Assembly (NCBI GenBank): GCA_948437735.1 | Contig: CAOJKD010000019.1 | Coordinates: 1 to 58,449 of the forward strand | Length of the DNA: 58,449 nucleotides | Reading direction: 5' to 3' | Source of the DNA: an uncultured Lachnospiraceae bacterium | GTDB lineage: Bacteria > Bacillota > Clostridia > Lachnospirales > Lachnospiraceae | Shown here: positions 33,768 through 38,621 of the stretch, piece by piece | Position numbering within the stretch: position 1 is the stretch's first letter | Layout of the letters: each line of letters begins with the position of its first letter | Program-made: the position numbers and the translations under genes | Notes under the pieces: model-generated | What the model was told of the DNA's origin: nothing | Databases searched by the model: none | What the model saw: the letters and a program-made list of their open reading frames with translations, nothing else

Positions 33768-33980
33768 CTAATTCCTCTTGTCCGTGAGAGCGAGGATAAA
33801 ATCCGTAGTAACCTGATAATACTTGCTCAGGGAAATGAGATGTCTGATCGGCATTTCATTTGCACCGCGCTCATATCTGGCATACATGGTCTGAGAGATG
33901 CCAAGAACATTCCTTGCAACAAACTCCTGCGTCAAATCGTTTTCCTGCCTTAAGTCACGGATGCGCTTTTTGTAGTCCAT
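33768..33980 (-). CDS. XRE-family (Cro/CI-type) helix-turn-helix transcriptional regulator, 70 aa
   Basis: ATG at 33980 lies 5 nt after AGGTGA. The HTH is LTQEFVARNVLGISQTMYARYERG. Confidence 0.6.
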   Translation of the reverse strand: MDYKKRIRDLRQENDLTQEFVARNVLGISQTMYARYERGANEMPIRHLISLSKYYQVTTDFILALTDKRN

Positions 33981-34204
33981 GTTGATCACCTGTGTCACCT
34001 TTTTCTATTTAGATTTTGATTGACAGGATATACCGCCCGCCAATCAATGGTTAATACATGACTGATTATAACATATATTATGATAGAAGAAAAGAGAAAA
34101 ATTGAAAAAAATCGAAAAAAATTTATTTTTTTATCGAAACATGTTTTGTAAGAAGAAAGATACAAGAAAATTGGAGGAAAATTCAGGAAAAACCGAAAAA
34201 TATC

Positions 34205-34233
34205 TTGACAAACAAAAAATGACATGGTAAAAT
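34205..34233 (+). promoter_or_regulatory. Consensus sigma-A promoter of the aspS leader
   Basis: TTGACA (34205-34210), 17 bp, TAAAAT (34228-34233). Confidence 0.5.
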
Positions 34234-34306
34234 TGGCGGAAGAATACAAAAATGATTATATGATAATGGCTGTTTTTTATTTTTGACAGCAGAAAGAGGA
34301 ATGCAA

Positions 34307-34360
34307 CAATGCTGTATATCATCCACAATGTAAACAGGGACGACGATAGGCAGCGCATGT
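34307..34360 (+). CDS. Candidate attenuation leader peptide MLYIIHNVNRDDDRQRM (17 codons; Asp-Asp-Asp plus two Asn codons)
   Basis: ATG 34307 lies 8 nt after AGAGGA. The codons are ...AAT GTA AAC AGG GAC GAC GAT AGG CAG CGC ATG TAA. It sits inside a ~290-nt leader immediately upstream of overlapping hairpins. Confidence 0.45.
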
Positions 34361-34421
34361 AACTGTGAAGTTAAAACACAGGTGCATGCGCTCTTTGTGC
34401 TGTGCCTGTGTGGAAGATAGC

Positions 34422-34467
34422 GAGACCACACTTGTATCAGGAACAAGATACTCGTGTGGTCTTTTTT
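34422..34467 (+). terminator. Leader (attenuator) terminator upstream of aspS
   Basis: GACCACACTTGTATC pairs with GATACTCGTGTGGTC (15-bp stem with a 2-nt internal mismatch), followed by TTTTTTT. The upstream GTGTGG (34406-34411) can pair with CCACAC of the 5' arm as an antiterminator. Confidence 0.6.
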
Positions 34468-34532
34468 TCATATGCGCACGCTCGCTTACCGCTGACAGCG
34501 ACAAAAAAATTAAAAAATGGAGGTATTTTTAT

Positions 34533-35853
34533 GGAACAGGTTCATTTTGTAAAGGCGGCAGATTATTGTGAAAAAACGGATTACAAAAGTATGGCAGGGC
34601 AGATTGTGAAACTGCACGGTGCAGTGACAAAGATTCGGAAGATGAGAGGATTTGCATTTGTATTGCTGCGCACAGTGGACGGAGTGGAACAATGCCTATG
34701 GGACGAAGAGTCAAATTTTTTGTTGGAAACGCTCTGCGAGGAGGCATGCATTGCCGCGGATGCTATGGTTGTGGCAGAACCAAGAGCAAAGGGCGGATAT
34801 GAGATGCATCTAATAAAAGTTACAGTACTTTCAAAGCCTGCTGCAGAACTGCCATTTCAGGTTGGAAATAAAGAGATTAACACTTCCTTTGAGAATATGT
34901 TTGACTATCGCCCGCTCTCACTGCGCAACGAGAGGGAGCGCGCAGTGTTCCGCATTCAGTCATGTCTGTGCCGTGCGTTTCGCAGTTTTTTAGAGCAGCA
35001 GGGATTTACGGAAATACACACGCCAAAACTTGTCTCCGAAGGCGCGGAGGGCGGAGCAAATATTTTTAAATTAGACTATTTTGGAAGGCAGGCATATTTG
35101 GCGCAAAGCCCACAGTTTTATAAACAGATGATGGTTGGGGTGTTTGAGAGAGTGTATGAGATTGGACCGGTGTTTCGCGCGGAAAAACATGATACTTCAA
35201 GACATTTAAACGAGTATACCGGAGTGGATTTTGAGATGGGATATATTCAAAGTTTTGAGGAAATTATGGAGATGGAGACCGGTATGATTGCTTTTGCGAT
35301 GGAGATGCTAAAAAAATCTGTACCAGATGAACTTGAACTTTTGAAAGTGTGCATACCAAAAGTTTTGGATATTCCAACCGTGCGGTTTCAGGATGCAAAA
35401 GAGCTTGTCGCAGAAAAGTACAAACGAAAAATTGCTGATAAAGAAGATTTTGAGCCGGAGGAGGAACGTCTGCTCTGTGAGCTGCTCCAGGAACAAACAG
35501 GGTGTGAATTTGTATTTGTGACTCATTATCCGTCTGCAAAACGACCGTTTTATGCGATGGAAACACCAGGAAATCCAACGGAAACACAGAGTTTTGACCT
35601 TTTGTTTCGAGGGCTGGAGGTGACAACCGGGGGGCAAAGGATACATGATTACACAGCTCAAGTGGAAAAGATGGAACGGCGTAATATAAATAAGGAAAGT
35701 TTTGAATCCTACTTAATGATGCACAAGTATGGTATGCCGCCTCATGGCGGATTGGGGCTTGGATTGGAGCGTTTTACCGCACGGCTGCTTGGCAGAGAAA
35801 ATGTCAGACAAGCGACTTTGTTCCCGCGTGACATTCATCGACTTACCCCGTAG
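34533..35853 (+). CDS. aspS: Aspartate--tRNA ligase, archaeal/eukaryotic type (AspRS2, possibly non-discriminating)
   Basis: ATG 34533 follows TGGAGGT. It has class IIb motifs [22 protein letters not shown] and [12 protein letters not shown]. The Asp-specific QSPQ loop is present ([11 protein letters not shown]). The 440-aa length fits. Confidence 0.75.
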
Positions 35854-36049: not shown

Positions 36050-37156
36050 ATGATTCAAAGAAAATATTGGAAAAAAGGGATGGTTACAGCAGGTTTTTTG
36101 CTGCTGGCTGCCTGCGGCAATAAAGATGGTGATGAGATTATGCCAAGTCCAGGCAATACGCAGGAGCCACAGGTAACACAAGCAGCGGAGGATCTTACAA
36201 CTCCTTCCCCATCCGTGACGGATGAGCCTGGCGTGGTGCCGCCGGACGCTCCGACACAGGGGGAGGACGATATTGAACAAGGAGGTGTAATTACGGAAAA
36301 CGAAAATGAAAAAGGAGTAGCAGTGCAGGATGAGATAACAGGACTTTTGTCTTATGGCGGGGTCAATTATGAGATTACCGGGGACGACACAATGTCAATC
36401 GTGGATTACTACGATATTGAAATGACAAAACTTGTGATACCGGACGAACTTGAATATGAAGGAAAAACATATCGAGTTACGGAGATTGAGGAAGATGTTT
36501 TTGCATATTTTTACGATCTTACATCCGTGGAGATCGGAAGAAATATCGAAGTGATTGGCAAGACAGCCTTTCAGGGATGCGGGGACCTCGTGGAAGTTAT
36601 ATTCCGAAAAAGTCCGCGTGTGATTGGAGACAGTGCATTTTCAGGATGTGAGATGCTTGAGAGCATCCATTTGCCGGAGGGTGTGGAAAGTCTTGGAGAA
36701 GAAGCTTTTTGTGGCTGTTCTGCGCTGGAGGATGTCAAATTGCCAGAGACGCTGGAAACGACAGGAGAAAATTTGTTTTTTGACTGTACAGCACTGGAGC
36801 GCATAGAAATTCCGGTATCTTTAAAAAATATTTCCTACGGAATGTTCACAAATTGTTATGCGCTGTCGGAGGTTGTTATTCCAGAAGGAATTGTCACCAT
36901 TGGGCAGGAAGCTTTTTGGGCGTGTGAATCTTTAAAAAGCATTACTTTGCCGGAGAGCTTGACTTACATAGGCAATCAGGCGTTTTACAATTCAGGATTG
37001 GAAAGTATCACATTTCCAGAAACGAAAGTTTCGCTCGGTGAAAATATCTTTGATTATTGTGAATCTATGGAAAAGGTTTATGTAAAGGAAACATCAGCAG
37101 AGTATTATGAATCAGAGCTGGAAGATTATGAGTATGAGATTGTAATTATGCCGTAA
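36050..37156 (+). CDS. Surface lipoprotein with BspA-type leucine-rich repeats
   Basis: It has a lipobox (LLLAACG). The pattern of conserved cysteines and LxxIxLP motifs recurs every ~23 residues (...IGKTAFQGCGDLVEVIF..., ...IGDSAFSGCEMLESIHLP..., ...LGEEAFCGCSALEDVKLP...). Confidence 0.65.
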   Translation: MIQRKYWKKGMVTAGFLLLAACGNKDGDEIMPSPGNTQEPQVTQAAEDLTTPSPSVTDEPGVVPPDAPTQGEDDIEQGGVITENENEKGVAVQDEITGLLSYGGVNYEITGDDTMSIVDYYDIEMTKLVIPDELEYEGKTYRVTEIEEDVFAYFYDLTSVEIGRNIEVIGKTAFQGCGDLVEVIFRKSPRVIGDSAFSGCEMLESIHLPEGVESLGEEAFCGCSALEDVKLPETLETTGENLFFDCTALERIEIPVSLKNISYGMFTNCYALSEVVIPEGIVTIGQEAFWACESLKSITLPESLTYIGNQAFYNSGLESITFPETKVSLGENIFDYCESMEKVYVKETSAEYYESELEDYEYEIVIMP

Positions 37157-37214
37157 AGAGCGTTTTTTGTTTTTGGAGATCAAGTCGCATAGAATGCGCA
37201 GAAAGAGGAATACA

Positions 37215-38621
37215 ATGGATCGTATCTATGGGAACTGGAAGAAAAAAGTGACCGTATTTTTGATGCTTTTTGTATTGGCAGCAGTGCATATAGTACCATC
37301 TGGAAGGGTGGATGCCGCCACAGCGCCGACGGTTACAGTGAAAAAAAAGACATTGTATGTCGGCGGGGACAGTTATAAGATCAAATTTAAAGATCTGGCA
37401 AAATCCAGTAAGGTAACTTATAAAAGTTCAGATACAAAAATTGCAAAAGTGACAACAACCGGCACGATCAAGCCAGTTGCAAAAGGAAGCGCGACAGTCA
37501 CAGTTTCGATTAAGCAGTCAAGCAAGACCTACACTTATAAAATTGCTGTTACAGTGAGCAATCCTTATGTAAAAATCACAAGCAAACCAGAGACTATGAC
37601 CGTCGGTGAAACATTTCAGATGGTCGGAAAAACTTACGGCTTGAAGGATGTGTCAGAGACTTGGACTGTATCGGACAAAACGGTTGCTACAATCAATGAA
37701 AAGACCAAAATACTTACCGCGAAGAAGGAAGGTACCGTAAAGGTAACGTTTAAGGATGCGACAAGCGGAAAGACCAGCACTGCAACAATCAGCGTTGTAG
37801 CACCGCCGCAGGAGGAAAAGGAGGAGGAAGAGCTTCCAGAAGACGAGCTGTTTGGCTATGATGTGGAAGATGGAGGCGTTATTATCACGGAAGTTTATGA
37901 TTCGACTGTGACTTCGCTGATTATTCCAAATTCGTTTGCAAATTACAAAGTTACAGCAATCGGAGACGGCGCGTTTGAGGGGCTTTATGATTTAAAGACA
38001 GTCAAGATTCCATCTACCGTTACAAGTATTGGCGATTATGCGTTTGGTTCTTGCAGTTCTTTAATGCAGATCGAACTGCCGTCAGGTTTGAAGTATCTTG
38101 GAGAGGGTGCATTTGAATATTGTGAATCATTGACGCAGGTTAGTCTGCCGAAGGGCATCGAAGAATTGCTGTCAGGCACGTTTTCTGGATGCAGCGCTTT
38201 AAAGACCGTAGAACTTGGATCTGTAAAGGCGATTGGCGACGAGGCATTTTATGAGTGTGTATCTCTTACATCCGTCTCGATTCCATCGACAGTAAAAACA
38301 ATTGGGACAAGTGCATTTGAATACTGTGAAAAACTTGCAACCCTCACACTGAAGTCAGGGCTTGAATATTTGGATGATTATGCATTTTCAGGTTGCCTTA
38401 AACTGACAACCGTATCGCTGCCAACTTCCTTAGAGTATCTTGGAAGCGGCGCGTTTGACAGCTGTGAATTGTTAAAGAGCGCAACGATTCCATCCTCTGT
38501 TGAAGATATTGGTTCAGGCGTTTTTGATAACTGCAACGAGTCTTTGAAACTGCGTGTCAAGAGAAATTCTGCGGGACATGAGTTTGCAGAGGACGAGGAG
38601 ATTCCATATTCTGTTTATTAA
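37215..38621 (+). CDS. Secreted protein with Big_2-like Ig domains followed by BspA-type LRRs
   Basis: ATG 37215 follows AGAGGAA. It has a signal peptide, then two Ig-like segments (ATVTVSIKQSS..., GTVKVTFKDATSG...). The same C/IG/AF LRR periodicity as the upstream gene follows. Confidence 0.6.
   Translation: MDRIYGNWKKKVTVFLMLFVLAAVHIVPSGRVDAATAPTVTVKKKTLYVGGDSYKIKFKDLAKSSKVTYKSSDTKIAKVTTTGTIKPVAKGSATVTVSIKQSSKTYTYKIAVTVSNPYVKITSKPETMTVGETFQMVGKTYGLKDVSETWTVSDKTVATINEKTKILTAKKEGTVKVTFKDATSGKTSTATISVVAPPQEEKEEEELPEDELFGYDVEDGGVIITEVYDSTVTSLIIPNSFANYKVTAIGDGAFEGLYDLKTVKIPSTVTSIGDYAFGSCSSLMQIELPSGLKYLGEGAFEYCESLTQVSLPKGIEELLSGTFSGCSALKTVELGSVKAIGDEAFYECVSLTSVSIPSTVKTIGTSAFEYCEKLATLTLKSGLEYLDDYAFSGCLKLTTVSLPTSLEYLGSGAFDSCELLKSATIPSSVEDIGSGVFDNCNESLKLRVKRNSAGHEFAEDEEIPYSVY

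Follow-up and report, generated by a model that had tools for sequence, protein, structure and literature searches.

A putative ribosome-mediated transcription attenuator with tandem Asp codons in the leader of aspS2, a non-discriminating aspartyl-tRNA synthetase gene of Lachnospiraceae

The subject of this study is the leader of aspS2 in a stretch of 58,449 nucleotides (nt), hereafter the window, from an uncultured Lachnospiraceae bacterium (contig CAOJKD010000019.1 of assembly GCA_948437735.1, positions 1 to 58,449 of the forward strand), and its candidacy as a transcription attenuator. The gene lies on the forward strand (34519-35853), with a ribosome binding site (RBS), GGAGG, at 34519-34523, an ATG at 34531 and a stop codon ending at 35853. 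Its 440-residue product is an archaeal-type, non-discriminating aspartyl-tRNA synthetase (AspRS), the archaeal type having been proposed in an initial annotation of this DNA; it matches the NCBIfam model NF003483 for aspartate--tRNA(Asn) ligase with 548.9 bits against a cutoff of 353, and TIGR00458 with 383.6 bits against one of 368.4; the asparaginyl-tRNA synthetase (AsnRS) models fell below their cutoffs. Upstream, on the same strand, is a sigma-70-type promoter (34205-34233) consisting of TTGACA at 34205-34210, a 17-nt spacer and TAAAAT at 34228-34233, in which 11 of the 12 consensus positions are matched and to which the window sequence adds an extended -10 TG (TG-n-TAAAAT); transcription is predicted to start near 34240. 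Between the promoter and the gene, also on the forward strand, is a leader peptide open reading frame (uORF) of 17 codons plus TAA (34309-34362), which encodes MLYIIHNVNRDDDRQRM and is preceded by the Shine-Dalgarno sequence (SD) AAGAGGA at 34294-34300, 8 nt from the ATG at 34309. It includes two Asn codons, AAT at 34327 and AAC at 34333, a run of three Asp codons, GAC GAC GAT, at 34339-34347 (GAC 34339, GAC 34342, GAT 34345), and the stop codon TAA at 34360-34362. Our proposed regulatory codons are AAC 34333, GAC 34339, GAC 34342 and GAT 34345, with AGG 34336 lying among them. All of the features that the initial annotation had described are present, including the promoter and the 17-codon ORF with its good SD and its Asp and Asn codons, although most of its coordinates were 2 nt too low (the uORF start had been given as 34307) and the synthetase gene, correctly placed 3′ of the leader, had been started at 34532.

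Six RNA segments, S0 to S5, all on the forward strand, follow the uORF SD. S0 (34334-34345, ACAGGGACGACG) is made of the Asn, Arg and Asp codons themselves, which are able to pair with the 5′ half of S3. S1 (34352-34368, AGCGCAUGUAACUGUGA), which holds the uORF stop codon, and S2 (34376-34392, ACACAGGUGCAUGCGCU) are the 5′ and 3′ arms of what we term the relay hairpin (34352-34392, AGCGCAUGUAACUGUG / CACAGGUGCAUGCGCU), in which AGCGCATG (34352-34359) pairs with CATGCGCT (34385-34392) around CTGTG (34363-34367) and CACAG (34377-34381). The alternative partner of S2 is S3 (34398-34413, UGCUGUGCCUGUGUGG), a pairing with a putative anti-antiterminator role in which ACACAGG (34376-34382) meets CCTGTGT (34405-34411). 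S3 is a hub, able to pair with S0, with S2 or, as the antiterminator, with S4, where GTGTGG (34408-34413) meets CCACAC (34426-34431). S4 (34424-34438, GACCACACUUGUAUC) is also the 5′ arm of the terminator, and it is its positions 34426-34436 that can pair with S3 instead; S5 (34447-34468, GAUACUCGUGUGGUC) comprises the terminator 3′ arm and the U7 tract at 34462-34468. In the terminator, GACCACACTTGTATC (34424-34438) and GATACTCGTGTGGTC (34447-34461) form a 15-bp stem followed directly by U7; a terminator scanner missed it owing to an internal 2x2 loop, and folding confirmed it. The pairings S0:S3, S1:S2, S2:S3, S3:S4 and S4:S5 thus overlap one another; the regulatory codons fall within S0 and the stop within S1.

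How widely is this arrangement shared? A protein-guided scan, with one genome taken per species, produced 80 orthologous aspS2 loci, mostly from Lachnospiraceae and with AspRS identities of 55-76%. The same leader is present at 69 of these 80 loci, giving 70 sequences with that of the window, and the uORF, the helices and the terminator all recur, an equivalent of the terminator being found in nearly all of the related leaders. Cultivable species among the carriers include Fusicatenibacter saccharivorans (L015), Lachnoclostridium phytofermentans (L017), Lacrimispora xylanisolvens (L030) and Kineothrix alysoides (L071). The consensus order is promoter, SD and ATG, a variable N-terminal part of about nine codons, (K)-L-N-R-D-D-D, a 4-nt spacer, S1, loop, S2, a second 4-nt spacer, S3, a variable spacer, S4, S5 and a U-tract, and the consensus segments are AGCGCUUGUAnCUGUGA for S1, UCAUAGGURCAAGCGCU for S2, GUGUUGURCCUAUGUGG for S3 and, at its beginning, CCACAUUGGUA for S4. 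A promoter of the form TTGACA-17-TGnTAnnnT stands 5′ of the uORF in nearly all 70 leaders, the distance from the end of the -10 box to the uORF ATG being 27-31 nt in most loci as against 75 nt in the window. As a test of specificity, an independent DNA-motif scan of metagenomes with the pattern AGGGACGAYGAT-N5-GCG-NN-TG recovered, among chance matches, about 60 genuine further leaders; wherever at least 600 nt of sequence follows one of these, the gene there is aspS2, and no copy was found in that scan 5′ of any other Asp or Asn gene. The apparent exception, L196, in which aspS2 begins and then breaks into an unrelated gene, indicates a chimeric contig. Since all genuine copies with enough downstream sequence precede aspS2, we take the leader to be dedicated to that gene. 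A GC-rich, divergent copy on an anaerobic-digester metagenome contig (L145:890-1353), in which the uORF is MRNVASLRDDDP and has no Asn codon, retains recognisable S1 to S3, a uORF2-like element (described below) and the start of aspS2, so that the family reaches beyond gut Lachnospiraceae.

Two further observations concern the promoter region of the window. A second promoter-like site at 34283-34310 (TTGACA at 34283, a 16-nt spacer and AACAAT at 34310, with TG) overlaps the SD and ATG of the uORF, a position unlike that of the promoters of related loci, which makes a chance match probable; a transcript begun there, were the site active, would not include the uORF start, and termination should be its default fate. 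In addition, the stretch at 34090-34200, directly 5′ of the -35 box, is A-rich and repetitive (GAAAAA / ATCGAAAAAAA motifs) and in its sequence resembles an UP element.

The case that the uORF is translated comes from its conservation across the 70 leaders. An ATG preceded by an SD opens the frame that encodes NRDDD in 68 of them, the SD-like motif lying 4-17 nt 5′ of the ATG, as against 1/70 and 0/70 for the two control frames, and the NRDDD frame stays open for a median of 23 codons, versus 5 and 2.5 for the others. In 62 of those 68 leaders the distance from the ATG to the end of the Asp run is 13-16 codons, even as the N-terminal sequence itself varies. The stop codon follows the run directly in 12 leaders, at +1 in 34, at +4 in 19 and at +6 in three, and in 68/70 it is inside or immediately 5′ of S1; the spacing from the run to S1 is free of gaps in all leaders, and this geometry is conserved together with the codons. 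Asp is kept at the three positions of the run in 70/70, 67/70 and 70/70 leaders, the three exceptions all being Asn at the second position, and Asn is kept at -5, two codons 5′ of the run, in 58/70. Leu at -6 is kept in 51/70 leaders by way of five codons (CTG, TTG, CTT, TTA and CTA), and Lys at -7 is encoded by both AAA and AAG; because these two residues vary synonymously, their retention indicates that the leader peptide is under selection. Conservation of the peptide ORF and of its Asp and Asn codons among orthologs, named beforehand as a check on the attenuation proposal, is thus borne out.

We assessed the helices in an alignment, A1, of 51 leaders, whose segments were excised in register by our own segmentation and joined without gaps by AAAA linkers, with 500 column shuffles and slid partners as controls; the sequences are phylogenetically related, and the values are to be read with that in mind. 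S1:S2 is 91.5% paired with eight pairs changed on both sides, S2:S3 98.0% with three, S3:S4 87.5% with three and one constant U-U mismatch, and S4:S5 88.7% with six. Each of the four helices outdid 500/500 shuffles in percentage paired, in cells changed on both sides and in covariation score, and the slid controls reached only 19-65% paired; the number of pairs with a double change was above all 500 shuffles for S1:S2 only. Position 34408 in S3, occupied by A or G in the different leaders, shows covariation with its partners in S0, S2 and S4, and this should be the signature of a hub shared by alternative structures. RNAalifold on natural sequences independently recovered S0:S3, S1:S2 and the terminator. 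The claim that four pairings downstream of the codons are mutually exclusive therefore stands, and they are conserved with compensatory changes.

The initial annotation had S1 to S5 right and missed the part played by the Asp codons as a pairing segment. Across the family the stretch AAY-AGG-GAC-GAC-G is nearly invariant and able to pair with the S3 hub. Among the 70 leaders the Arg codon is AGG in 62 and never CGN or AGA, the variants being TGG, GGG, AAG and ACA, and the Asp codons are GAC (69), GAC (61) and GAT (68). AGG accounts for 8% of the Arg codons of this genome and GAC for 32% of its Asp codons, that is, both are disfavoured, and codon preference therefore fails to explain the frozen pattern. 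A first count of S0:S3, made without the Asn codon, gave high pairing and no covariation. The helix was retained because three further lines supported it: RNAalifold on 33 natural sequences, an extended pair count and a synonymous-recoding test. In the first of these, an outer helix, A(Y)AGG-ACG / UGU-CCU(R)U of S3, was predicted to enclose S1:S2, and the wobble base of the Asn codon covaried with S3 (UA 23, CG 6, UG 3). In A1, S0:S3 was 86.9% paired versus 26-63% for slid controls, and the same covarying pair was UA in 35 leaders, CG in nine and UG in six. In the recoding test, the native AGG-GAC-GAC-GAT ranked first to third of 48 synonymous versions for the stability of the S0-S3 hairpin at 35/37 loci, with a mean ddG of -5.9 kcal/mol. 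Every one of the competing helices, then, shows covariation, in S0:S3 at a single pair, and because it is a single pair there is moderate support that the S0 codons serve twice, as sensor codons and as pairing strand. Such a pairing would explain why disfavoured codons are frozen, and it predicts termination when the uORF is untranslated. It is only for this untranslated state that S0:S3 alters the model proposed earlier, making it one of termination and not of read-through.

Taken with its conservation, the leader has every feature of leader-peptide attenuation that can be looked for in a sequence: an SD-led ORF, cognate codons, a terminator and an antiterminator exclusive with it. We consider it likely that the leader is a ribosome-mediated transcription attenuator that tunes aspS2 to the supply of charged tRNA-Asp, and possibly of charged tRNA-Asn also, and our analysis in this respect supports the interpretation given in the initial annotation. 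In the mechanism we propose, a ribosome would translate the 17-codon uORF behind an RNA polymerase that has yet to finish the leader, and the outcome would depend on which of its partners the S3 hub takes, S4 being the 5′ arm of the terminator. If the uORF were untranslated, S0:S3 with S1:S2 nested in it would form one long hairpin and leave S4 free, S4:S5 would form and transcription would terminate. If Asp-tRNA were scarce, the ribosome would stall with an Asp (or Asn) codon in its A site, the Arg codon being a further candidate; it would then cover S0 and not S1, S1:S2 would form and sequester S2, and S3, deprived of both S0 and S2, would pair with S4 as the antiterminator, allowing read-through into aspS2. 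If Asp-tRNA were plentiful, the ribosome would proceed to the stop codon inside S1 and cover S0 and S1, and the freed S2 would capture S3, so that the terminator could form. The nested S1:S2 hairpin would in this way act as a relay, and limitation of Asp-tRNA would be expected to raise read-through.

The folding energies of the window are consistent with these three states. The 236-nt leader folds with z = -6.19, and 0/200 shuffles fold as well. In kcal/mol, the predicted energies are -21.7 for S1:S2, -23.4 for S2:S3, -10.7 for S3:S4, -22.0 for S4:S5 and -37.2 for the long S0-S3 hairpin, and the ribosome-free minimum free energy (MFE) structure is the long hairpin, including S0:S3, plus the terminator. 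With the RNA masked to about 34351, as by a ribosome whose A site holds the first Asp codon, and with S1:S2 imposed, S1:S2 plus S3:S4 came to -33.0 kcal/mol; the S2:S3 fold, which is the best one without that constraint when the mask is 2 nt longer, came to -30.0 kcal/mol. With a mask to about 34374 (stop codon in the A site), S2:S3 was the sole possibility. These results agree with the ribosome-position logic that had been put forward for the stalled and terminating states. A pairing from outside the proposed model also appears in the MFE of the full leader: ACAGCAGAAAGAG (34286-34298, including the uORF SD) pairs at 12/13 positions with CUCUUUGUGCUGU (34391-34403), which sits at the junction of S2 and S3, and once a first round of translation is over, such a pairing could hide the uORF SD.

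Several observations weigh against the attenuation model. Once S5 is present, the terminator fold wins under every mask, at -50.9 versus -39.1 kcal/mol for the forced antiterminator; the terminator being about 12 kcal/mol more stable at equilibrium, the decision must be kinetic. The S3:S4 helix of the window is itself weak, at the -10.7 kcal/mol given above, with two mismatches relative to the family consensus. At the 12 loci with a stop directly after the Asp run, the stalled and terminating positions of the ribosome would be only 3-9 nt apart. The conserved Lys-Leu before the Asn is superfluous in a model of pure codon sensing, and S0:S3 has the one covarying pair. Lastly, AGGGACGACGAU is near-invariant at the nucleotide level, which is unusual among leader peptides and would also fit an element recognised as RNA only.

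The attenuator may also be only one part of a larger switch. In about 63 related loci a second element, uORF2, which the initial annotation had missed, is situated between the terminator and aspS2 (e.g., L001:2902-2950 and L060:2840-2890). It has an extended SD, GAAAGGnnGTGATC, of 13-14 nt, almost fully complementary to the 3′ end of 16S rRNA, and encodes M-(G/R)-H-x-D-(D/Y)-V-x-M-D; within it is a 6-bp hairpin, GGACAU/AUGUCC, whose 7-nt loop AnAGAYK presents a GAY codon and of whose six pairs four covary. By its sequence, uORF2 may be a second, translation-level Asp sensor. The element is absent from the window (34469-34530), which either lost it or never had one. At ten loci (L027, L030, L035, L037, L049, L054, L055, L060, L061 and L071) a conserved CCCAUACGAG lies between the U-tract and uORF2 and is able, as judged by eye, to pair with the terminator 3′ arm (CUCGUGUGG) or with the start region of uORF2 (AUCGUAUGGG); if true, these pairings would extend the chain of alternative pairings past the terminator. 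A broader reading then takes the invariant L-N-R-D-D-D, the frozen rare codons and S0:S3 as a dual sensor of tRNA-Asn and tRNA-Asp that is particular to a non-discriminating AspRS, possibly with stalling assisted by the nascent chain, and coupled in most relatives to the previously undescribed uORF2 tier. We hold this reading to be doubtful. If it were true, tRNA-Asn would be read through the Asn codon and the Asn substitutions in the run, uORF2 would add a second tier of control, translational or tRNA-contacting, and the whole would amount to a regulon switch for Asp and Asn, built in two stages and widespread among gut Lachnospiraceae.

Could the same folds be chosen by a signal other than tRNA charging? 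Nascent peptides such as TnaC and SpeFL sense small molecules in the exit tunnel, and the acidic run of MgtL brings about an intrinsic ribosome destabilisation that responds to Mg2+. By analogy, K-L-N-R-D-D-D might be an arresting or destabilising nascent chain whose signal is a small molecule in the tunnel or Mg2+. The Lys and Leu 5′ of the run are indeed kept as amino acids with their synonymous codons varying, the length from ATG to DDD is tightly constrained, and three acidic residues near the end of a very short peptide are what such a chain might look like. Against this, the codons are for the very amino acid that the regulated synthetase attaches, the run admits no substitution but Asn, the second tRNA substrate of that enzyme, the leader is found only 5′ of aspS2 and no feature demands a ligand, so that we think it unlikely that the nascent chain is the sensor in place of tRNA charging.

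Nor does the near-invariance of nucleotides in the uORF oblige us to set its translation aside. Synthetase genes can be autoregulated through an RNA operator, as at E. coli thrS, and AAUAGGGACGACGAU with the S0-S3 hairpin might similarly bind AspRS, a tRNA or a metabolite, the uORF being secondary. Third codon positions are among the near-invariant nucleotides, the Arg codon shows no synonymous change and the structure is strong and conserved, all of which would suit an RNA-only switch. Yet an SD and an ATG at fixed distance accompany this frame in 68/70 leaders (0-1/70 in control frames), the frame is kept while the N-terminal sequence is unconstrained and Leu varies synonymously, the stop is inside or immediately 5′ of S1 in 68/70, the S0:S3 pairing accounts for the frozen codons and no Rfam family matched; a switch of this kind is quite improbable. 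A constitutive partial terminator, or merely a structured 5′ UTR, in which the uORF and its codons are tolerated passengers and there is no amino-acid-specific regulation, would agree with the terminator always being the favoured fold at equilibrium, but it would leave the uORF frame, the Asp run and four covarying helices kept across families at 55-76% AspRS identity without a reason, and we judge it very unlikely.

The remaining rival is a T-box, degenerate or atypical, with direct sensing of uncharged tRNA-Asp or tRNA-Asn. Such an element is what one would ordinarily look for at a synthetase gene in Firmicutes, where T-boxes are the usual control and where one aspS2 locus of our set has one, but it is effectively refuted by the lack of an RF00230 match, of the core sequence and of any Stem I or specifier architecture and by an antiterminator without the UGGN bulge. 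In Rfam 15, no family matched the window at the gathering score, and at E<=10 the region 34000-34700 gave only three spurious matches to eukaryotic or archaeal snoRNA or miRNA families, mir-3338, a trypanosomatid snoRNA and sR55 (E 0.57-5.2), none of them RF00230, so that other Rfam families were rejected also. The T-box sequence AGGGUGGNACCGCG had no match in 34240-34530 with up to three mismatches allowed, and the 20 closest orthologous leaders had neither an RF00230 T-box nor any other riboswitch match. The model is able to find such an element where there is one: in L078, a Clostridia metagenome-assembled genome (MAG) with 55% AspRS identity, RF00230 scored 108.9 bits at L078:313-558, directly 5′ of aspS2. 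With this control detected, we rejected the T-box for the window, and the earlier statement that the leader has none holds. The specifier position of the L078 T-box reads AAC-A, an Asn codon, and the same gene is therefore under tRNA-Asn sensing in a more distant lineage of Clostridia. The two kinds of leader are alike in their target gene, their terminator/antiterminator output and their tRNA-charging logic; they differ in that a T-box works without translation, through direct binding of uncharged tRNA, whereas Stem I, specifier loop and T-box sequence are all missing from the leader in the window. A T-box has also been reported at aspS2-gatCAB-asnB of Clostridium acetobutylicum.

Among the known systems nearest to the attenuator we propose is the trp attenuator (trpL) of E. 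coli. In both, a short leader ORF carries its regulatory codons in tandem within the first of the pairing segments, and an antiterminator is set against an intrinsic terminator; an untranslated and a fully translated leader would terminate, a stalled ribosome would permit read-through, and the decision would be kinetic, since the antiterminator is the weaker of the two structures. S0:S3, S3:S4 and S4:S5 correspond to trp segments 1:2, 2:3 and 3:4. Unlike the trp leader, that of aspS2 has an extra nested relay hairpin (S1:S2) between S0 and the hub, and the terminating ribosome would act indirectly, by freeing S2, whereas the trp ribosome covers segment 2 itself. The codons are for Asp, plus Asn, with the choice of codon frozen, rather than for Trp, and the target is a tRNA synthetase in a clostridial Firmicute rather than a biosynthetic operon. 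A synthetase gene under a leader peptide with the codons of its own amino acid is familiar from E. coli pheST and its leader peptide pheM, to which the aspS2 leader is alike in that respect; pheST differs in its Phe codons, its proteobacterial host, its classical four-segment architecture and its unrelated sequence.

Within the Firmicutes, a His leader peptide 5′ of a hisS paralog/hisZ in bacilli was predicted as a ‘regular’ leader that replaces a T-box (Naville and Gautheret, 2010, PMC2965389); it resembles our case as a leader peptide in place of a T-box at a gene of the synthetase family, and differs in its His codons, its Bacillus host and its unrelated sequence and architecture. The same paper describes no Asp or aspS case, and a ‘tRNA synthetase leader’ of Shewanella aspS (PMC2659441) is an unrelated structure prediction. 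Full-text searches of literature outside the subscription journals turned up no account of a leader peptide for Asp or aspS. As judged from its sequence, then, the leader is supported as a new, Asp/Asn-specific, clostridial case of classical leader-peptide attenuation that controls an aminoacyl-tRNA synthetase and includes a relay hairpin.

The surroundings of the gene are as follows. A divergently oriented gene for a 76-residue XRE/RstR-like helix-turn-helix (HTH) protein (33768-33998, reverse strand) lies 5′ of the leader, two genes for leucine-rich-repeat surface or adhesin-like proteins (36050-37156 and 37167-38621, forward strand) lie 3′ of aspS2, and no tRNA genes were found in the window. 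Because of what lies downstream, aspS2 appears to be monocistronic.

What would such an attenuator mean for these bacteria? Leader-peptide attenuation is a textbook mechanism, but nearly all of its known cases, to our knowledge, are operons for amino-acid biosynthesis in Proteobacteria and Actinobacteria, and the synthetase genes of Firmicutes are expected to carry T-boxes. The aspS2 leader would add an unusually clear case of codons under a double constraint, from coding and from base pairing. The leaders and their uORFs are unannotated, and gut genomes would be better annotated with a covariance model of the family; the leader would also offer a ready-made switch responsive to Asp-tRNA. Lachnospiraceae and related Clostridia are dominant gut commensals, and in many of their genera an attenuator that responds to Asp, and possibly to Asn, would have been kept on a non-discriminating AspRS, a ribosome sensor having taken the place of the T-box on this gene.

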